Made by a program: the position numbers and the translations under genes
Shown: positions 1,067 through 34,679 of the stretch, in pieces
Layout of the letters: the number at the start of each line of letters is the position of its first letter
How positions within the stretch are numbered: the stretch's first letter is position 1
From: Escherichia phage vB_EcoM-813R1
Sequence record: ON470617.2
Length of the DNA: 64,000 nucleotides
Direction: 5' to 3' (one strand)
The notes under the pieces: model-generated
What the model was told of the DNA's origin: nothing
The model's input: the letters and a program-made list of their open reading frames with translations, nothing else
Database searches by the model: none

Positions 1067-2986
1067 CATGGAACAGTTCAATATCAATAAAGGGGTGACG
1101 ATCAAGCCTGGGCTTGACGTGCTTCCCCGCCAGTGACTGATGATGAATATCGCGCATTAATGGCCGGTGAGGACCGCTATCTGATGACGGAATCCAACAC
1201 CCTGGAGGAAATCGAGGCTACGTTCTTCTATGACACGCCGATCCACTGGTGTGCTACGGATTTACTGGAGGCGATTAGTTCTACTCGTTTGCAGTTACAC
1301 CGGACCATGCAGGCATTTGTCCGGGCATTGAACCAGAAGCTGAATGGTACCGGAATCTCTGCGGGGAGTGATAAAACGGGGGATGTGGCCCAGAGCGGCG
1401 CGCGCGCGATCGGCGGCGCTGAAATTGGCCGGGCACGTAACGTTAACGGGCTGCCGGTCTTGCCAGCCATTATTCCGCTCAGTGATGGTCAGACTATCAG
1501 CATTCTGTTTCATAGCCCGACAGCGGAAAACCGGATCACCAATAGCGATACGCTGGTTGCTTTCCAGTTCTTACTGAATAAAAAAGACGTTACTCACACC
1601 GTTGCTCCGATGAGTGGACGTGATATGACGCTGGCGCAGGTCACCATGAAACTTGCCAACCTTGCAGAGAAAAACTCGGCAAAATTCCAGCGTGCGCAGA
1701 AGAAGAAAAAAGCCCTTGTTGATGAAATAACCCAACTACAGGCTGACAGTGACCAGAAAGAGGATGCCATGAGCGACCTCGCGGATCAGGTGGCAGCGGT
1801 AGAAGGGCAGAAGGCAGATCTGGAGCAGAAAATTAACGCTGTTGCATCGGAAGCGGATTCTCTTTATGAAGAGAATGAGCGTTTGCAGACGGAGATTGAT
1901 CAGCTCAATCGCACTGGTGGGCGCGATACCATTGCTCCAGCGGGGATGACTGGTGGGCACTCTCGCGCGCTGACGGATCGCCTTGCCAGTATCAAAAATC
2001 GTATGCATATGGACGGGGAAGTGACGCTCAGTAATGGTGCATCAATGAAGCAATTCATTGGGGGCGGCGAAGGGTATATCCAGTTAACCGATCCGGATGG
2101 CAGCGTATACATGATCAAGGCTAAATCCATACAGGGTGTGGACATGGCAGATGCGATCGGCAAGCTGTTTAAAGCCTATAAAGCGGGTAATGTATCGGAA
2201 TACCTGGTCCAACCAGAAGAACATAAACCGGAAAACGTCGAACCTGAACCAGCGGAGGATACCGGTAGCTCTTCGCCTGAACCAGAAGTCTCTGTAGGTG
2301 CATATCGATATGCCCTGCAAATGCGTCCGGCGGCCCCTGGCGCAATACCTGAAGGTAACAAAGCAATTCTGCCGCGCCCTGATGAAGGTGACCCGTATTA
2401 TGAATATGCACGCTACGGCATTGCTACTTACGATACCCCGCTTTCTGATCAGCAAATGAGTGAGTACGACCTGAAGTTATTGCCTCGCGAGGATTCTTTC
2501 GACTTCCTGGCGAAGACACTTACTAATGGTCCGTTTGGCAAATATGCACAAAAAACTCTGGATCTGGCCACCAGCTCACCAGACGAGTTCCGCGTAATGC
2601 TGAAAACTCAGTTTCAAAAAACTTTCCCCAATATTGCGTTTCCGGGGGGCGCTGGCACCGAGAAAATGGTGCAGAGCATGATCAATACATTGCAGGCCGA
2701 AGTCGGTGAGATTACTCAGCCAGAACCGGCCCCGGCACAGCCTGATGAAACGGTTAGCGAAGCAGATGCAGAGGCTAATAAAGCCATTGAATATCTCAAT
2801 AACGTGATGGATATGCAAAGCACTGACATGGCGGAGATCCGTAACGCTCGGGGCAATGTCCGGGAAGCGATTGCAGCCCTTCAGGCTGCCGGACGTTTTG
2901 AGGAAAACGAAGAGCTGGTTAACGGCGCAGCTCGCCACCTGGCTGATCTGTTGGTAGCAATCCAGAAAGCGGGGGTAGCGGCATGA
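1067..2986 (+). CDS. darA: DarA-like antirestriction head protein; reading frame interrupted near 1125..1135
   Basis: 617-aa ORF 1133..2986 plus a 22-codon ATG-initiated ORF at 1067 in another frame; combined length ~639 codons; internal similarity to the hdf product; operon synteny hdf-darA-ddrA-ddrB. Confidence 0.55.
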
Positions 2987-3348
2987 CACTATCAGCTATT
3001 GAGTTAATGGATCTCAGCGATAAGTTGGATGCTCTGATGTCCAAAGCGGCTACCGCGAGTGGCATGGAGTTGCTGGATATCAGCGATGAAATTGACCAGA
3101 TCATGCAACAGATGGGGTACGGTGTGTCCGGCGGCAGTAGTGGCGAGGAAAAACAACCTTCGGTACATGATGGTGTGCCAAAACTGGTTGCTGATTTCCT
3201 GGCTGATAAATTCGTCGATCAGAGCACCGATGCATTTATCGGTACGTTACAGGACTTGAGTCAATATGTTGGCACATACATCGACCTGGACCAGGTTAAA
3301 CAGCACACGGCGGCATGGATAGCCGCCAACATTAAAGAGGCAGCGTGA
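2983..3348 (+). CDS. ddrA: DdrA-like small protein, 121 aa, start overlaps the darA stop
   Basis: ORF 2983..3348; 4-nt start/stop overlap with darA suggests translational coupling; position. Confidence 0.45.
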   Translation: MTLSAIELMDLSDKLDALMSKAATASGMELLDISDEIDQIMQQMGYGVSGGSSGEEKQPSVHDGVPKLVADFLADKFVDQSTDAFIGTLQDLSQYVGTYIDLDQVKQHTAAWIAANIKEAA

Positions 3349-4693: not shown

Positions 4694-7680
4694 ATGAGCT
4701 TAAGCGATCAGGTGGTAATGGCCACCAGCATAGAAACGCTGATCGAGCTGCTAAAGAACCTGCCCGATTATGGGCGGGTTTCGTATGTGGTGACAGCGAA
4801 GGGAGACGAGGTAAAAACAGCGTTTGATATCGTCGATGCCTCAGCTATTTTGGTATCCAATACTCTGGATGGGAAAATTAATCCTGACTATCCCCGGGAA
4901 CTTCAGCCGCGCGACCGGACCCGCGCATCCAGCCTTCTTCAGGTTAACCAGATATCCAAAGATTTGCGGCCTGCTCAGCTTACCGATTCCGGATTATCCA
5001 GCCATGGCGCACCGATAATTGGTGAGGACAATGCAGTTGAGTCAGGTAATGGACGTACCATGGGGATCATTAAAGCCTATCAGGACGGTAATGCGGATCG
5101 GTATCGGGAGTACCTGATTGAACATGCGACCGAATTCGGCATACGTACTGAAAAGGTTGAATCAATGACGGCTCCGGTACTGGTGCGCCGCCGGTTAACG
5201 AAGGTTGACCGCGTTCAGTTTGCCAAGGACTCAAATATTTCTGATCTTCAGGAAATGGCAGCCAGTGAAAAGGCTTTTGTTGATGCCGACAGCATAACAC
5301 CGGCGATGATGGCGCTGTTTAATCCGTCAGAAAGCGGAGATCTGCTTAGCCGCAGTAATGACGCGTTTATTCGCGGATTCATGACGCAAGTTGGTGCCAC
5401 ACAGGCTGCTGGCCTTGTAACGGAAGATGGGCGACCAACACGGCAACTTGTTGACCGTATACAAAACGCGATCTTTGCCAAGGCATATAAGGATGCGCGC
5501 CTGGTAAGGATGGTTGCAGAAGAACCTGATCCGGATATGCGTAATGTTCTGACGGCGCTTAATGCGGCAGCCAATGATTTTGTCCAGATGCAGGCTTTAT
5601 CAGGAGAAGCGCACAAGCAGGCTGTGACAACTATTGTTGATGGCATTGAGACAGCGGATAGCCTCGATAAAAAGGCGCTGGCGGCATTGAAAGATGCGGT
5701 AGACCTGGTAAGGCAATCGAAGGAGTCAGGCCAGCATATTACCGATGTTATTGCTCAGGGGGATATGTTCAGCGAAACAGCCCCGGAAGTGAAAGCTCTC
5801 GCGTTGTTCATCGTCGCGAATAACCGTAGCGCGAAGCGTATGGCCACCGCCTTTAAATTGATGGCTCAACGTATCAATGATGAGTTACAGCACCAGGGCC
5901 AGGCGCTGGGGGATATGTTTGGCGGTGGTGATGTGTCGTTACAGGATATCCTTCGCCAGGTGTCTCAGGAACTGGAAAACGAAGGCATGCAAGGGATATC
6001 CGGCGGTCTTTTCGAGTCCGTTTCCGGCGGTAGTTACAACGGTGTTGCTCCATATACCAGCTTGCTATTACATCGGGCATCCGGCATCAAAGACATTATT
6101 CATCTGATCAGGCTGCTTTCCCGTACAGATCCCCAGGATGAACAGCTTGTACAAGTGCTTGCGCATTTTGTTCGAATGCCTGTTGCCGACGTGAATAAAT
6201 GGTGCCGATTATTCGGTATCAGCAATTCGTTACTTCGCGGCTTGTTAAATCACGCATCCTCCCTTGGGCGCGATGGCTTTGACGAGATAGCGCAGGCGAT
6301 AAAAAACGGAGATATGCCACCAGCTATTGACTGGTTTTCCATTCGCCCAACCAGGGTGAAAGCATTCCTTAGCGCGGCGCATTCGGCATCACCATTGGCA
6401 GAAATGGTTCAGAGGTTGTCGCTCATATTCACAGACCATACCGCGTTGGGTGATCTGACTCTGGACGAGATGAAAGAAGCCTCCATTCAGTGGGCCGATC
6501 AACAAAATGAGGTTAACTCAGACTTCTTGCCAGCATTCAGGAAGGCCGTTAGTAAAGCGGATGATGCCCGTGGAATTCTGAAGGCATTTAAGGCATTGCA
6601 AAGTCGTGTTAATAAACATGTCGGTGATATCGATGGGGTAACGGCGGAAGGCCGGGATATCCTTAAAGAGCACGGCATAACGCCAGAGTTTATTGATGAG
6701 ATCAGGACTGATATGCAGCGTGAGGTCGTATCGTCCCTGCAAATCGTAGCCAGAGCGTTGGCGGATGCTAATCCGAAGAGTGCGGCCATTGTTAACCGGG
6801 TTATTGGTGATATTGAAGCATCGGAGGGCATGGGGGCGCTGAAACTCTTCCTGTCGCGAGCGTTTAATCCTAACGGCAATATTCTCCTGGCATTATTGGT
6901 GAGGCTAAAAAGTATGTCAGTGAAGAAGAACTTGAGCAGCTTGACCAACTACTTAAGCGATTCTCATATAACCCGCAGACACGCTGGCAAATGAATCAGC
7001 GAAGTATGGGTTCGGTCCACGAGAAAGTGTTATCTGCCATGAACAGTGCGATCGCAAACTCATCCGTATCTGAAGAAAAAGCTCTTGAGTGGGCCGACTC
7101 TTTTATCACGGAAGAAGTGGAAGAAGCCCGCGCTGGACAGAATGGTGGGATAGACCTGCGCAAGGAACTTGCTGATATTTATCGCCTGACCGGCGGGAAA
7201 ATATCGACCTTATCAAAAGTGGTTCACCACCAGGGAAGGGCATATGCAAATCTAAATGGTGTTGTTGCTGTCAATTTGAACGATGAAAATGCAAGTGCAC
7301 TGTGGCACGAGCTGGGTCATCATCTTGAGTACAGTAACCCTGGTTTGTTAGAGAAAGCCCGGTCATTCCTGAAGGCCAATGTTGAAGGGGATAAGCCATC
7401 TTTCGTCAATATCGGTGGGCGTGGCAAGCCTGAATGGTGCTTCAGATCTCGATTGAGTAATATTTATATGGCGAAGGTATACCCGCCAGCCTCAGTAAGT
7501 AACACCGGGAAAATTCGGCAGAAATCACCGACTATTTCCAAAACGTCAGCAACGGAAGTATTCTCTATGGCTCTTCAGTTGTATCATGACAAAGAGGCCG
7601 CTGCCGCATCACTGATGAATGGTGACGGATTGCTGGAACTGTTATTAGGTGTGGCAAAGGAGCTAAATAATGCAGATTAA
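4694..7680 (+). CDS. ddrB: DdrB-like large protein (~990 aa); frame interrupted near 6890; N-terminal region has a ParB/Srx-like motif (…YPRELQPRDR…)
   Basis: 766-aa ORF 4694..6994 continues as readable protein in the frame of ORF 6991..7680 when shifted by one base near 6890 (…EEELEQLDQLLKRFSYNPQTRWQMNQRSMGSVHEKV…); position after ddrA. Confidence 0.45.
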
Positions 7681-7978
7681 AATCGCAGCGCCATTAGGCG
7701 GAGATGCCATTATCGAATTTGATGATAATGAAGAAGTTTCCGGGCGTTTAAGCATTATCTCCGGTGACATTACCGAGGACATGATCGCTGAAGCCATAGC
7801 TGGGGCAAATCCCAATAGCTATATGGGATTCGTTAACACCCTTGATGCTCCCGCAAGTGATGTTCTCCGAACGCTGCATCTTTACGCTGGCTGGTTTGTT
7901 GATTGGCCAGCAGTAGATGGTGGCGATGAGGACGACGACGATGATTTTGGTGATCATGTAGACCAGATCGTATATTGA
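7670..7978 (+). CDS. hypothetical protein, 102 aa, acidic C-terminus (…DGGDEDDDDDFGD…)
   Basis: ORF 7670..7978 overlapping the end of the upstream gene; followed by a terminator. Confidence 0.5.
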   Translation: MQIKIAAPLGGDAIIEFDDNEEVSGRLSIISGDITEDMIAEAIAGANPNSYMGFVNTLDAPASDVLRTLHLYAGWFVDWPAVDGGDEDDDDDFGDHVDQIVY

Positions 7979-7980
7979 AG

Positions 7981-8008
7981 AAATCCCGCCAATCGGCGGG
8001 ATTTTTAC
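7981..8008 (+). terminator. rho-independent terminator (aatcccgcc-aatc-ggcgggatt followed by a T-run)
   Basis: 9-bp stem plus T-tract read directly, immediately after the 7978 stop. Confidence 0.55.
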
Positions 8009-8032
8009 CTCACGAGAAGCTTTTTTCTGATG

Positions 8033-9103
8033 TCAGCCAACAGTGCTCGTGCAAATCTCTTGGTGGTTTTTCGACAAATGCCTCTTCAGCCACATCCTGC
8101 CAGGGATTTGTTTAGCCCATTCAGCTATAGCGTTATGGTTTGCCGAGAATAACGGTATTGTATAGGCCTTCAGCCAGTCTAATGTGCTGGAGTTGTGTTT
8201 TTGAGCGTGATGTTTCGCATGGTGTTTGGCGATCACGATCGTAGGCACTACCCATTTACTACCGTCAGTCATTGTGAAGTGCATATTACGGGGAACAGAT
8301 GACTTTTCCATCAACTCCCGAATCCCGGGAAATTTCCCCAAGATCAATCGGCGATATTCATCGCTATTGCGCCCACCAAACTCTTTGGCTTTGAATTCAA
8401 GATATGCTTCAGAAACGAGAGGTGAATCCTCTGTGTTTAGAGTTATCGCCGTGAAAAAACCAGCAGGATTGTTTTTACTATGGGCCAACCGGTGATGCGA
8501 ATCATAAAAGTACCCTTTCTCGCGTTCCGATGGTTTCGACAGCAACAGCAGGCGCGAGTCATAATTGGTTAAATTGCCAGTTATCACTGCATGAGCGCGA
8601 TCGCTGATTTCCGCCGAGTTAATAACGATGAAAAGATCGTGCGGTCCAGTAAAACCAGCCAGAGACTCTTCGTTATTCAGACAATAGGTTATATAGACGC
8701 ATCCCCATGTTTCACTGATATGCACCAACCCTTTGTCAGGGTGTATTCTGAAATAATTGCCAAGAAAAGGGTGTTTTTGGGTAACTCGCTCCCAATAACG
8801 GAACATATAGTCAATTATTGTTTTTCGACTATCGTTAATCGCAGGAGAAACAACCACTGTACGGGAACACGAATACAGTATTGTTTGCAGGATGCTAATC
8901 ACTGCCACAATAGAGGTTTCCCCAATACCATGTGGTGTGGTGGCAGTGACTTTGGCTCCGGTGTTCTTTATCGCGTTAATAATTTTTGCTTGATGAGGTG
9001 TTAACTCAATATCAAGCAACTCTTTTGCTGCCAGTTCCCAATTGTCTTTATACCGTTCTATCAGTGCTAACCAGGCAGATTCATTCTGTATACGATTAAT
9101 CAC
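8033..9103 (-). CDS. terminase large-subunit-like ATPase paralog, 356 aa, no nuclease domain, degenerate Walker A
   Basis: Clear similarity to the ATPase half of PacB in this window (e.g. LLLSKPSEREKGYFYDSHHRLAHSKNNPAGFFTAITLNTEDSPLV vs [44 protein letters not shown]); Walker A position reads HGIGETS (no lysine) where PacB has GHGTGKSD. Confidence 0.6.
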   Translation of the reverse strand: MINRIQNESAWLALIERYKDNWELAAKELLDIELTPHQAKIINAIKNTGAKVTATTPHGIGETSIVAVISILQTILYSCSRTVVVSPAINDSRKTIIDYMFRYWERVTQKHPFLGNYFRIHPDKGLVHISETWGCVYITYCLNNEESLAGFTGPHDLFIVINSAEISDRAHAVITGNLTNYDSRLLLLSKPSEREKGYFYDSHHRLAHSKNNPAGFFTAITLNTEDSPLVSEAYLEFKAKEFGGRNSDEYRRLILGKFPGIRELMEKSSVPRNMHFTMTDGSKWVVPTIVIAKHHAKHHAQKHNSSTLDWLKAYTIPLFSANHNAIAEWAKQIPGRMWLKRHLSKNHQEICTSTVG

Positions 9104-10004
9104 TTTCCACCTCTTCCGTGGTGTTTTCTTGCAGTTCTGTTAATGCAGCACGACATAGGTTCCGGGCATTGGCTATAGCCACACTTTTGACTTCATCCGT
9201 CATCGTGCAGGTAATGTACTGATCGAGTTCTTCAGCGCGGATGATGCTTTTGCCAATCAGAAACTGTATTTGCCATAGCAGATCGGCATCCATAATCAGA
9301 ATTTCTGCCGGGCCTTCAGGGCCAGCCGGGAAGGAAACATAAGACTGTTTGCCCAGGCCGACAACTCGACAACTTGCTTCAAGAATTGCGCGCTTGAGGT
9401 CTGACTTTATAACGGAAACAGGTTGATTTTCACCAGTGATTACGCCGTTGACATGGAAAGGCATGTAGCTTGAAATACGCTCCACTTTCCACACGCCAGC
9501 AAGCGATCCTTCATGCAGCACAATGGGGGTAACCGCGAGTTTCATCTCACCATATAACTGCTGGCAGATAGCTGGATTGCTGAATACATCTAAAGGCTCA
9601 CATTCAAACAGCGGCGCAATCTGCATGAGGTCCATCATGGTCATCCCTGGGGTACGAGCAGTAATGAATTTGCGCATACCAGTATCCATTGCGCTCCAGA
9701 TTGCTACACCATGCTTTTTGCTCACTTCTTCAGTAAAGCCAAGGTGGCACATGATGGTTTTTTCGATAGCCAGATCGGAGATAGAAACCTTTTCGCCAGG
9801 TACACCATCATTATTGATGGTCACTTCGACACTCTGGCCATTACGCAGGCGGTATTGAATTGTTTTAGTATTTTGTGCTGCCATAGTCTTTTCTCTGCTT
9901 AAAAACTGATGTATTGCGCCTTCAGGTGGGTCAGGAATGTTTTCCCACCAGCGAAAGCAATATCTCGGGGTGTTCTGTTCGTTAAAAACGCGTTCCATTG
10001 CCAA
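9096..10004 (-). CDS. hypothetical protein, 302 aa
   Basis: ORF 9096..10004, same strand as and overlapping the start of the terminase-like paralog; no motif recognised. Confidence 0.5.
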   Translation of the reverse strand: MAMERVFNEQNTPRYCFRWWENIPDPPEGAIHQFLSREKTMAAQNTKTIQYRLRNGQSVEVTINNDGVPGEKVSISDLAIEKTIMCHLGFTEEVSKKHGVAIWSAMDTGMRKFITARTPGMTMMDLMQIAPLFECEPLDVFSNPAICQQLYGEMKLAVTPIVLHEGSLAGVWKVERISSYMPFHVNGVITGENQPVSVIKSDLKRAILEASCRVVGLGKQSYVSFPAGPEGPAEILIMDADLLWQIQFLIGKSIIRAEELDQYITCTMTDEVKSVAIANARNLCRAALTELQENTTEEVESD

Positions 10005-10086
10005 CTTTGGCGTTTTTTAGCGAGTTCGTGCTTTTGTTGGCGTTTGGACCACCGCTTTTCTTTCAGTCGTTTTTTACTCATAAACT

Positions 10087-10575
10087 CTAAAACGGAATAT
10101 CGTCTTCAAAGTCCATTGGAGGTTCGTTATTGGCGCTGCTCTGAGGTTTGCCACCACCGCTGTATTGCTGGTGGTTTTGAGGTTGGTTTGACTGCCCCCA
10201 GCCATTTGAGGACTGTGAATCGTCGCGGCGAGCGCCGATCATTTGCATGGTGCCGCCCTGGCTGACGATAATTTCCGTCGTGTAACGTTCTACACCGGCG
10301 TCATCTGCCCACTTACGGGTTTTAAGTTTCCCTTCGATGTAGACCTGAGAACCTTTTCGTAAATACTCACTCGCAATTTCAGCAAGTTTTCCGAACAAAA
10401 CGACTTTATGCCATTCTGTTTGCTCTTTCTGTTGGCCCGTTTGCTTGTCGCGCCATGATTCATTCGTTGCGATGCTGAGTCTTCCGACCGCGCCGCCATT
10501 TGGTATATACCTGATCTCCGGGTCTTGCCCCAGGGTGCCAATCAGGATGACTTTGTTTACACCGCGTTGTGCCAC
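10087..10575 (-). CDS. ssb: single-stranded DNA-binding protein
   Basis: OB-fold N-terminus ([23 protein letters not shown]…), Gly/Gln-rich linker and acidic C-terminal tail …DFEDDIPF. Confidence 0.95.
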
Positions 10576-10594: not shown

Positions 10595-10611
10595 AAATTA
10601 ATTAGAGCAAT
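10595..10611 (-). promoter_or_regulatory. C1-operator-like site (aaattaattagagcaat) between ssb and lyz
   Basis: 16/17 match to the P1 C1 operator consensus ATTGCTCTAATAAATTT (reverse complement), in an intergenic region. Confidence 0.5.
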
Positions 10612-32003: not shown

Positions 32004-33488
32004 TTATTCATTAAGCCATGCCAGAGCTTCATCAACCTGCGCTTCGTCTTCGACGCTAAGCACTTCATCCTGGGGAACATAATCAGCCAGCATAGCGAAA
32101 CAATATGTATCCCAATGGTCTGGTGAGTGCAGGTTGAGTTTTTTCTTCATATCCTCCTTACTCATCACCTTCCATTGACCTGCGGAGTTAATCCCTACAG
32201 GGATTTTCGACGCTTCCTCAATAGTTTCATTACCCTTATCCAGTCTCATACGACCAGATTTTACGGCCTCTGCGGCTTGAACGTTGGCATAAGCACGTTT
32301 ATCAAAGTACAGGCTCTTATCTTCACGGCTATGCATCTTTTTACCCCAGCGTATACGCTGTACGGTAATACCATAATACTCGTACATCAGATCCGCCGTT
32401 GCTTTACCCAGGCCATCGCCGTCTATCGCTATGGTGATATTTGGGAATCGCTCAGGATTACATTCTGCGAAAATTTTGGCGGCAAGCTGCGTTTCTGTAA
32501 CGTCTGTGTATTCCAGCATTCGATAGTTGATTACACGGCGTTTATTTCGCTGGCCGGACACCATCATGATATTGATAACGGACTTATCCCGTCCCGTACC
32601 ACCAGCAACGTCCACACATGCAAGCCAGCCCCATCCTTTTGCAATCTTGACTTTCCGCCGCGTTGCACGTTCAACCTCATCACGTCCAAGAAGGAAGCCA
32701 TCCTGTGATTTAGGGAATAGGCCGCGTACCTTAATCATGTACATAGGGTTATCACGCCCGCCGTACTCCGCCAGCTTCATTTTGATAAATGCTGGCGTTA
32801 CCAACGGTGATTCCTCACTGTTAAGCGTGATCGCCGTATAAACGCCATCAGGGTTACCAGGACGCTTGGCCAGTTTATGGTGTGTATCGTAGAAATAGCC
32901 GCTTGGGCGTGTAGGCTGTGACAGCAATAAGATGCGGTTATCCTGTCCGGTAAGAGCACCGGTGATGATACCGAAAGCTCTATCACTGACACCGGAGGCT
33001 TCATCGATAATATACAGAAGATGATCTGCGTGTTCACCGGCGAGAGCTTCTTCACTTCCCAGACGAAAGCCCTTCGGTACTACAGTCCATACACCTTTAC
33101 CAGTAATCTCATAGAAAGCGGTTTCTGTCAGAACAAAATAATCAGCAAGCCATGGGAAACGGCTGGTGGCAGTAGCCCAGTTTATCTTGATGTACTTGAA
33201 TATACCGGTCATTACCTGCTGAATTTTGTTCGCAACGATAATGGCACGGGCACCTGGATACATGATTATGAACAACATGATCATGATAGAAGTCATGTCT
33301 GATTTCCCGGTACCGTGACCAGACGAAACAGATGTCTTGCTACCCTGTTCCTGCACAGACTCAATAATCAGATCCTGCTGCCAGGTAGGTGTTTTGCCGA
33401 ACAAAACATCAGCGGCCGCAATCCAGTCATAACGATATAGCGCCACCAGCTCGCGCCAACGTGGATCCGTTACGCAACTTCTGGCCAT
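32004..33488 (-). CDS. pacB: terminase large subunit PacB (ATPase plus nuclease)
   Basis: 494-aa ORF with Walker A (GHGTGKSD) and a C-terminal nuclease-sized domain; directly downstream of pacA. Confidence 0.85.
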
Positions 33489-34679
33489 TAATCATCATCC
33501 CCGTATAGCTTGCGGGTAACTTCTTCGTCTTCCTCCTCGTCTTCGTCCGGTCTTGTTCCAGCCATGGGTCGTTTGATACACCTTCAGTATCAACATCTCC
33601 ATAACCGCCTGTATCAACGATATCGGCGATTTCTTCCCTACGCTGCTCAATCCACAATGCGGCATCGGCGCGGCGGTTGGCGGCCCGTTCTCGCGCAACT
33701 TTGTCCAGATCTTCAAGAGAAGGGCCACCGACGGCTGTTTGCCTTTCCTCATCATCGGTATTGGTCTTAGGAGCACGCAGATCGGCTTTGATTTGCTCCA
33801 GCATCAGGGGCGGCACTTTCCCGCCATGCGCCTCGATGAATTCAGCTGCTTCCAGCACTGACCAGTTATTTTCACGCTTTCGTTCGTATGCCAGCTTAAC
33901 AATGCCAGCTTGCCCCATAGACAAAGCGTGCTTTTCCGCCTCCCGGCTTTCTTTTCGATAGTTATTCCGGATGCTGTAAATGGTGTTGATCAGGCTGCTT
34001 ATCTGCGCGGAACAGCTGTTTAGCATGCTCGCGATACGGTATTCAGGCGGAGTACCTTCATCATCGTCTTTTTGCTGATCGCGCATTTCCTGCACCAGGC
34101 GAATACACGTATCCTGGCGTTCTCCAGCATAAGGAGATGAGAAAGAGACTTTTCCAGAAGAGTGGTTTCCAGAACATCGGCCCCGGACCGACGCAACATA
34201 GCGCGCGCGGCCTTCCGCGCTTCAACGTTATCTATCAGGTAATCGCCAGCTTCGAATTCAAAGCGTTCACCATCATCATCCAGGGTGTCGCGTTCCAGGC
34301 GATCACGTAAGGTCCGGTGGGCGCGGGTGATCACGTCATGATCATCAGAACGATCATTTATGCGCTTATTCTGGCGCTTCGCGTTCTCGACTGCGGCACT
34401 GACAACAGCATTAACTCTTTGTTTTTCAGCCATTTCAGCCACAATGTGATCACCTGCACGTTGATCATTAGCGTGATCAATGATCATGCTTTTTAGTGGT
34501 TTTCTGACAGGCTTATTTGGCTTACGGCTGTCCGCTGTTCCGGTGTCTTCTTTGAATGCACGGAGATAACGACGTGCGGTGTTTGGGTTGAGATTAAACT
34601 CGGCGGCATATTGTGCGATGGTGTAACCACCATCTCGCGCCAGGCGAGCAAAATTCTTCTTGTGATCGTCCCAGGTCAC
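33427..34679 (-). CDS. pacA: terminase small subunit / pac-recognition protein PacA; frame interrupted near 34050..34100
   Basis: N-terminal ORF 34020..34679 with an HTH-like segment (…[25 protein letters not shown]…) and C-terminal ORF 33427..34095 in another frame; contains the pac site. Confidence 0.7.
34299..34490. other. pac: pac packaging site: two clusters of TGATCA/G hexamers, each carrying a GATC Dam site, inside pacA
   Basis: Four GATC hexamers at 34300..34358 and four at 34447..34490, read directly. Confidence 0.75.

Follow-up and report, generated by a model that had tools for sequence, protein, structure and literature searches.

A catalytically degenerate paralog of the large terminase PacB encoded beside isaA in a P1-like phage-plasmid

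The TL gene and its relation to PacB

We analysed a stretch of 64,000 nucleotides (nt) from Escherichia phage vB_EcoM-813R1 (sequence record ON470617.2), hereafter called the window. The element is a P1-like phage-plasmid and its region 7500-10500 is 96.6% identical to two records named 'P1', MH422554 and MH445380. Three co-directional genes, ssb, isaA and a gene that we call TL, follow each other in this part of the window. TL denotes the dead PacB paralog encoded at 8010..9103 on the minus strand. PacB itself is the product of an open reading frame (ORF) lying about 23 kb away, which is labelled pacB or large terminase in near-identical records. The coordinates of all features are collected in Table 1.

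A preliminary description of the locus had claimed that the TL product is homologous to the ATPase half of PacB. Indeed, BLASTP gives 36% identity over 266 amino acids (aa) with an E-value of 4e-55, the match covering the ATPase half of PacB only. This similarity is far above chance and, as judged from the sequence, TL is a paralog of the PacB ATPase domain. The P-loops of the two proteins align without any gap. TL reads TTPHGIGETS at this place and the Walker A lysine is replaced with a glutamate, as had been noticed. The alignment and the structural model agree that the P-loop of the P1-type TL contains no lysine at any position, so that no conserved lysine elsewhere in the loop makes up for the substitution. 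The Walker B motif, missed earlier, reads DLFIVINSAE in TL (FIVINSAE as compared to YIIDEASG in PacB), with Ile-Asn in place of Asp-Glu. Motif III is also lost, including its threonine.

The common 364-aa form of TL was modelled with AlphaFold2 from a shallow alignment of eight sequences (mean predicted local distance difference test score, 75). In the model, the loop that connects strand 51-55 to helix 63-76 ends with Glu62, and Ile161-Asn162 stand at the end of strand 156-161. As modelled, these residues occupy the positions of the canonical Walker A lysine and Walker B Asp-Glu pair. The best structural matches of the model in the PDB, as obtained with Foldseek, are all large terminases (Sf6 gp2, D6E, T4 gp17, the P74-26 ATPase domain and HK97). 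At the profile level, TL matches PHROG 5902, a family of unassigned function (E-value 6.5e-171, residues 1-337 against profile positions 1-333 of 359), and phrog_2, the large terminase (TerL) family (E-value 3e-9). Searches of Pfam, NCBIfam and PDB sequences gave no useful match for TL or IsaA, and no defence-system family of PADLOC-DB 2.0 matched either protein at E-values up to 0.1.

TL thus has the ASCE P-loop ATPase fold and the homology of a TerL protein. It lacks the Walker A lysine, the Walker B acids, the RNase H-like nuclease domain and a place in the packaging module. From the motif losses, ATP-driven translocation and DNA cutting are predicted to be absent. Overall, the data support the view that TL is catalytically dead, terminase-like and devoid of a nuclease domain. 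The loss goes beyond the compromised catalysis first proposed, as it includes the Walker B pair and motif III and extends to a whole clade of relatives. The resemblance to PacB is not evenly spread: in the P1-type TL, the lid (residues 176-262) is 51% identical to PacB, and both residues 1-55 and the core (56-175) are 27% identical. In most clade members, residues 1-55 and 176-262 are 37-51% identical to PacB and the core 26-40%.

The TL ORF as written in the record (8033..9103, minus strand, GTG start) encodes 356 aa. The ORF first described is therefore present, but its length is probably an artefact. Positions 8103-8105 read CCC where MH422554 has CCCC, and the last 22 codons of the 356-aa ORF are out of frame. 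Restoring the base yields a TL of 364 aa, eight codons longer, with its stop at 8012..8010 and still without a nuclease domain. The tail of the repaired protein, ...IPWQDVAEEAFVEKPPRDLHEHCWLTSEKSFS, closely resembles that of P0001, which with 851 member sequences is the common form, and is recognisably kept in TL relatives only 47-53% identical.

Three further one-base deletions were found by comparison with close relatives, at 6886 in ddrB and at 33549 and 34113 in pacA. The first splits ddrB at about 6886 into 766 and 229 aa (as compared to 995 aa) and the two others break pacA into ORFs of 222 and 219 aa (as compared to about 397 aa). Each of the four deletions falls within or abuts a CCWGG sequence, the motif methylated by Dcm. 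Dcm sites are known for systematic errors in nanopore basecalling, and the four deletions look like methylation-linked basecalling errors. Because DNA packaging would be impossible for an element in which pacA is broken twice, all four were treated as probable assembly artefacts. A frameshift of TL as real biology was considered and rejected on these grounds: the four deletions are all at CCWGG and two of them hit the essential pacA. The preliminary description had also envisaged that TL might be a frameshift fragment of a longer gene. A frameshift does exist, but it affects only the last 30 of the 364 codons, is a probable artefact, and the intact gene encodes no full-length TerL. Frameshifts at Dcm sites in the window should not be taken as biology, and its other apparent pseudogenes call for the same caution.

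Degenerate relatives, selection and the C-terminal domain

An exhaustive profile search of 1.84 billion representative proteins returned 1147 relatives. The state of the motifs was scored among the best matches of at least 200 aa, to which were added the TL copies from the examined loci and earlier protein matches. In this set, 126 relatives are canonical, with the lysine and the catalytic glutamate both present and a median length of 493.5 aa, as compared to 364 aa for TL. Eighteen relatives have neither residue, and all of these were classed as short. They measure 228-268 aa, or 362-368 aa when they carry the TL C-terminal domain, apart from P0002 (438 aa), in which the ORF seems to have been spuriously extended upstream, giving additional N-terminal residues, and P0030 (444 aa), which has a different C-terminal tail.

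A neighbour-joining tree, built without support values, groups the included degenerate proteins, with one exception, into a single clade beside that of PacB. Fifteen of the 32 columns at least 80% conserved in the 126 canonical relatives are lost in this clade. Most of them are in or near Walker A (S56, G57, H58, K62), the Walker B region (D162, E163, S165, G166), H153 and motif III (T193). What the clade retains are structural columns, among them Q37/Q38, G59, G61, G151, F199, S227-P228, G244, Y250 and G256-x-F-P. At the Walker A position, lysine is found in 100% of the 126 canonical proteins, and E, R, H, T, M, I, C or Q in the degenerate clade, a variety that looks like relaxed constraint. 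In the canonical Walker B motif, the glutamate is 100% and the aspartate 90% conserved. A 13-member degenerate set keeps neither acid, except for the aspartate in P0067 and P0089 and the glutamate in L006. The L006 copy (NZ_CP031917, 5046-6053) is the only examined clade member with a glutamate at the catalytic Walker B position (IIVTEAAL). Its TL homolog starts about 30 residues late, after a gap of about 77 nt from isaA, and may be truncated or frameshifted.

Some relatives have a lysine one position later in the loop (GIGHKS, GVGTKT, GIGQKT), as would suit a TL that is still an ATPase with an unconventional active site. We consider this very improbable, since the P1-type loop has no lysine at all, since the Walker A position is so variable across the clade, and since the Walker B acidic pair and motif III are lost as well.

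Besides the longer forms, the wider clade includes P0028, P0029, P0032, P0034, P0067 and P0089 (about 230-265 aa), which have little beyond the ATPase domain and have lost the catalytic residues. Genes of this clade were placed in loci L014 (5863-7278) and L087 (6001-6792). The genomic context of the short degenerate relatives was placed for P0030, P0032 and the L012 type only; no viral contigs were found for P0028 and P0029.

Among plasmids searched with tblastn, about 162 records have a full-length TL, out of 782 matching at least the PacB-like part. About 120 of the plasmid copies are at least 80% identical to TL and the remainder about 48-53%; three lineages can be distinguished, at roughly 98%, 52% and 48% identity. 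The reading frame is intact in the approximately 162 records, across lineages about 50% different in amino acids. The ratio of non-synonymous to synonymous substitution rates (dN/dS), obtained with the Nei-Gojobori method from comparisons with unsaturated synonymous sites, is 0.09-0.40. For instance, L005 and L007 show 9.5 non-synonymous and 26.5 synonymous differences, with a ratio of 0.09. TL is under purifying selection.

These values bear on whether TL could be a non-functional remnant of a duplicated pacB. The lost catalytic motifs, the frameshift in the window and the many P1-like elements without TL might be read in this way. Such a reading is hardly credible, however, given the dN/dS values, the open frame in about 162 plasmid records and across lineages diverged by about 50%, the conserved C-terminal domain, and a frameshift that fits an artefact pattern also breaking the essential pacA. 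TL is a real accessory gene, and its product probably owes its function to binding and not to catalysis.

The C-terminal domain of TL (residues ~265-364) is conserved within the family, including the divergent L012 copy, and it matches PHROG 17928. A MAFFT alignment paired an 'AK.IPW'-like motif of this domain with PacB and made it a candidate remnant of the PacB nuclease. This candidate was rejected, since hhalign gave a probability of only 0.2% for a match between the TL domain and the PacB-family nuclease domain. The absence of a nuclease domain, as first described, therefore also holds for the repaired 364-aa form.

By tblastn of phage genomes, two more hosts of the domain (about 95 aa) were found. 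In Cronobacter phage JK004 (L089 4010-4306, gene_35), it is a stand-alone 98-aa protein encoded two genes downstream of a DnaB-like helicase. This placement resembles that in L012, where the TL-like gene directly follows DnaB. In Xanthomonas phage SAC (L090 2879-4291), it forms the C-terminus of a 470-aa DUF1351-like protein encoded between a DUF2303 gene and ERF-exonuclease-SSB. Genes of the DUF1351 type are typical neighbours of genes for single-strand annealing proteins, in a slot also used by Gam-like genes (PMC8093625). From the JK004 and SAC occurrences and the DUF1351 slot, we conclude that the C-terminal domain is no leftover nuclease but a mobile, previously undescribed module that belongs to early regions for DNA metabolism or anti-host functions.

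Such neighbourhoods lead to the idea that TL is an accessory factor of early replication or recombination. The dead ATPase fold would serve as a DNA or protein scaffold, tethered by the C-terminal domain to SSB, a DnaB-type helicase or the recombination machinery, and TL would perhaps protect or handle DNA ends or concatemers. Several observations are consistent with this: TL lies within the probable ssb operon in the window, its relatives follow a DnaB-like helicase in L012 and a Ref-like RecA-dependent nuclease in L087, and its C-terminal domain occurs near DnaB in JK004, in the DUF2303-ERF-exonuclease-SSB module of SAC and, there, in a DUF1351-like protein, a type whose genes typically flank those for single-strand annealing proteins (PMC8093625). 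The basis of the argument is gene neighbourhood, however, and early phage regions mix DNA-metabolism with anti-host genes. In addition, reference P1 replicates and recombines without TL. We see this role as a minority chance.

The isaA partner, the ssb operon and a movable cassette

TL had been described as paired with an uncharacterised 302-aa protein. The 302-aa ORF (9096..10004, minus strand) is in fact the named P1 gene isaA (P1_gp017), with 94% identity over 304 aligned positions, and it matches phrog_2326 (E-value 8e-149). IsaA homologs have 262-268 aa and their alignment starts at Met41; the true start of isaA is likely the ATG at 9884..9882, giving 262 aa. No Pfam or PDB sequence match was found for IsaA. 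Its structure model is poor outside residues 35-120. Structure searches, which led to large terminases for TL, gave an uncharacterised phage protein as the nearest structural neighbour of IsaA.

The two genes are co-oriented and overlapping, as first reported, but isaA is the upstream one and it is its stop that overlaps the TL start. The isaA stop (9098..9096) and the TL GTG start (9103..9101) share an overlap of 8 nt (GTGATTAA), and a Shine-Dalgarno-like sequence, GAGGTGG, precedes the TL start. This arrangement suggests translational coupling of isaA and TL. No good sigma-70 promoter match was found between ssb, isaA and TL on their strand. With a C1 repressor operator directly upstream of ssb, we infer an early, C1-repressed ssb-isaA-TL operon. 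In the whole window, 13 C1 operator matches with at most 3 mismatches were counted as compared to 0.38 expected by chance, and one of them, at 61439-61455, is perfect and overlaps another on the opposite strand. The immunity circuitry of the element looks intact. Downstream of TL, the GC-rich hairpin at 7985-8000, with T runs on both strands, is likely a bidirectional terminator; a consensus terminator scan did not have this hairpin in its output.

Table 1. Features of the isaA-TL region and related loci (window positions, except for the Tad2-like genes, which are given in their own loci)
Feature	Position	Strand	Remarks
TL gene	8010..9103	minus	364 aa after one-base repair; ORF as written ends early, at 8033
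Degenerate Walker A PHGIGETS, residues 57-64	8912..8935	minus	Glu62 (8920..8918) for Lys
Degenerate Walker B LFIVINSAE, residues 157-165	8609..8635	minus	Ile161-Asn162 for Asp-Glu
TL C-terminal domain, ~100 aa, residues ~265-364	8010..8311	minus	Non-nuclease; mobile; common to phrog_17928 proteins
One-base deletion site in TL	8100..8105	minus	CCC as compared to CCCC in relative; within CCTGG Dcm motif
isaA (P1_gp017 homolog)	9096..9884	minus	262 aa from Met41 (likely start); open frame reaches up to 10004
isaA-TL junction	9096..9113	minus	Stop/start overlap GTGATTAA and GAGGTGG
ssb	10087..10575	minus	First gene of co-directional ssb-isaA-TL array
C1 repressor operator	10595..10611	minus	One mismatch to consensus; directly upstream of ssb; Ossb/Op21 of P1
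Hairpin CCCGCC-GATT-GGCGGG	7985..8000	.	Read from sequence, between convergent hxr and TL
pacB	32004..33488	minus	494 aa; catalytically intact large terminase; ~23 kb from TL
Tad2-like gene, L092 (SJ46)	1801-2646		
Tad2-like gene, L093 (Ro157c2YLVW)	2518-3195		
Tad2-like gene, L005	3521-4222		
Tad2-like gene, L003	5332-5994		

Nucleotide similarity to reference P1 (NC_005856) extends through hxr to window position 7976 and starts again at 9080, so that, on the isaA side, it ends a few codons past the TL start. Between the equivalents of these two positions, reference P1 has IS1 and isaB in place of TL. TL itself, which could at first not be assigned to a named P1 gene, is absent from reference P1. 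TL as the uninterrupted form of P1 isaB was considered and rejected: IsaB is unrelated (E-value 0.19), and TL is wholly replaced by isaB and IS1. P1-like elements are documented to vary in the isaA-IS1-isaB stretch (PMC9603915, PMC6906374), and isaA was non-essential in a CRISPR interference screen (PMC10695390). Because reference (laboratory) P1 has no TL, TL is dispensable for P1 packaging.

This weighs on the possibility that TL regulates packaging of its own element, as a timer or brake that would keep PacA or the pac site waiting for ready proheads and concatemers. The paralogy with PacB would fit, as would the lid, and the N-terminal segment in most clade members, which are still PacB-like. 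TL is however found in only about one fifth of the plasmid records with a PacB-like gene and not in reference P1, and it lies apart from the late packaging genes. We regard such a regulator as unlikely. More generally, the role in regulating or competing with packaging that had been proposed is not supported, since P1 packages without TL, since TL stands outside packaging modules, since its context is probably of early type and since its C-terminal domain recurs in modules for replication and recombination.

In P1-like relatives, the pair is kept across diverged lineages, as an IsaA homolog (about 42-48% identical) lies directly upstream of the TL homolog (47-53%) in L003, L005 and L007-L011. 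One such lineage has the order cre, two small genes, dut, a Tad2-like gene, isaA and TL, followed by convergent doc/phd. The Tad2-like gene (C-terminal PF11195, Thoeris anti-defence 2 family) is found directly upstream of isaA in several P1-like lineages and at two genomic positions. SJ46 and Ro157c2YLVW have it upstream of isaA at the ssb locus, and both are without TL. In the window and in reference P1, about 200 nt separate ssb from the isaA start, at the place where other lineages have the Tad2-like gene. The unit behaves as a modular, movable cassette, (Tad2-like)-isaA-(TL), at two genomic sites, with IsaA as its most constant member. More distant TL-like genes stand in other surroundings, beside dnaB in L012, where no IsaA homolog occurs within 6 kb, and after the gene for a Ref-like RecA-dependent nuclease in L087, where an IsaA-like gene lies at a distance of 2.7 kb. 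Neither TL nor any TL-like gene was found in a packaging module; the neighbours are isaA, ssb and hxr in the window, and dut, Tad2-like, doc/phd, dnaB or ref-like genes in the relatives.

In several lineages, and at either of the two genomic positions, isaA is directly preceded by a Tad2-like gene, which raises the question of counter-defence. TL could be a terminase look-alike that blocks or escapes host TerL sensors (Avs1-3, Upx), or could belong to an anti-defence cassette together with the Tad2-like gene and IsaA. Its probably early expression and its patchy accessory distribution agree with this. Moreover, TL has lost what Avs2 and Avs3 read, namely bound ATP-Mg, active-site residues and, for Avs3, the nuclease domain (PMC13601566). 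Loss of these features would at least hide an early TerL-like protein from Avs2 and Avs3. On the other hand, the sensors are activated by binding, so a binder is expected to trigger rather than to block them, and a TL without ATP site is possibly not recognised at all. The window itself has no Tad2-like gene. We consider a counter-defence role rather doubtful.

Possible function of TL and comparison with known systems

We weakly and tentatively favour the reading that TL is a non-catalytic mimic of PacB that takes part in a conflict between phages, or between phage and host, by binding only. Because TL is inferred to be unable to hydrolyse ATP or to cut DNA, it would have to act by binding, and it would occupy something that normally binds or recognises a large terminase. 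Mimicry is suggested because the N-terminal helices and the lid are most PacB-like while the nucleotide-binding core has drifted. TL would be made from the C1-controlled ssb operon early after induction or infection. It might then hold terminase partners in unproductive complexes, be it a PacA-like small subunit or the TerL of a competing P1-like phage; IsaA could serve as cofactor or regulator. A role in conflict is proposed on account of the PacB-like peripheral segments, the accessory hotspot and the precedent of terminase-targeting prophage systems (TERi). Interference with other phages, put forward in the preliminary description, is at most a reasonable hypothesis.

Several observations weigh against this mimicry. 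In the P1-type TL, the N-terminal segment and the core are equally similar to PacB (27% for both, as compared to 51% in the lid), and TL never adjoins packaging genes. The C-terminal domain is found in replication or recombination contexts, after DnaB in two elements and with DUF2303 and ERF-exonuclease-SSB in a third. Unless there is another promoter, a lysogen would not be guarded from superinfection by a C1-repressed operon. A dead subunit that poisons terminase would also endanger packaging of its own element, unless it discriminates self from non-self or is counteracted. IsaA is present without TL in P1, SJ46 and L004, and distant TL-like genes are without an IsaA homolog within 6 kb (L012, L014). 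PADLOC relates neither TL nor IsaA to a known defence family. The replication/recombination and the counter-defence explanations come close behind the conflict reading.

Taken as a pair, isaA and TL, often after a Tad2-like gene, may form an undescribed terminase-mimicry conflict module. It would poison the terminase of competitors, with IsaA as cofactor or for self-immunity, or it would block or evade host sensors. We give this proposal some credence, short of an even chance. If it is true, the wider clade of short, degenerate TerL-like proteins (about 250 aa) would represent a mimic family, and TL would offer a genetically tractable case of a copy of the phage packaging motor turned into a weapon or a shield.

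As far as description goes, the result is firm, and for a model phage it is somewhat unexpected. Bacterial immune sensors exploit the invariance of large terminases, which are regarded as essential enzymes that do not vary. Here, a conserved and selected, yet dead, paralog indicates that the TerL fold has been reused for a job without enzyme activity, and this in the well-known isaA-IS1-isaB variable region of P1. MH422554 and MH445380 annotate TL as 'terminase large subunit'; elsewhere it is called hypothetical. TL should not carry the former label, and annotation pipelines should not call it a terminase. In the searchable literature, we found no paper on TL or on any catalytically dead terminase paralog.

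Within the same genome, TL compares first with PacB (P1 pacase B). The two share the TerL-type ASCE fold, with 36% identity in the ATPase domain and 51% in the lid. TL differs by the absence of the Walker A lysine, the Walker B Asp-Glu pair, the motif III threonine and the RNase H-like nuclease, and by its unrelated C-terminus of about 100 aa. It also lies in a probable early accessory operon and not beside pacA, and is dispensable for packaging.

Packaging can be disturbed by dedicated proteins. Ppi of Staphylococcus aureus pathogenicity islands (SaPI) and Rpp of phage-inducible chromosomal islands (PICI) are packaging-interference proteins that bind terminase components of competitors. To our knowledge, these two and TerI of Listeria prophages are small proteins unrelated to TerL, which sets them apart from TL, and a similar activity of TL would be hypothetical. 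In the Listeria TERi system, the prophage protein TerI blocks packaging by targeting terminase and is paired with self-immunity proteins (bioRxiv 10.1101/2025.02.27.640495). The likeness would be in a mobile-element protein that stops packaging in a competitor by binding terminase components, and the pairing of the inhibitor with self-immunity proteins hints at one possible role for IsaA.

The DUF1351-like phrog_17928 protein of SAC and gene_35 of JK004 share the C-terminal domain of TL, over about 95 aa. Unlike TL, the remainder of these proteins is unrelated to terminase, and they belong to replication or recombination modules.

Among described proteins, T4 vs.8 comes nearest to TL: it is a free-standing paralog of the ATPase domain of terminase, without assigned role, and it keeps its Walker motifs (PMC13601566). 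Like TL, vs.8 is a phage-encoded homolog of the ATPase domain of the phage's own large terminase and has no nuclease domain. Compared by description, the two differ in that vs.8 retains the Walker motifs, whereas TL has lost both and carries an additional C-terminal domain.

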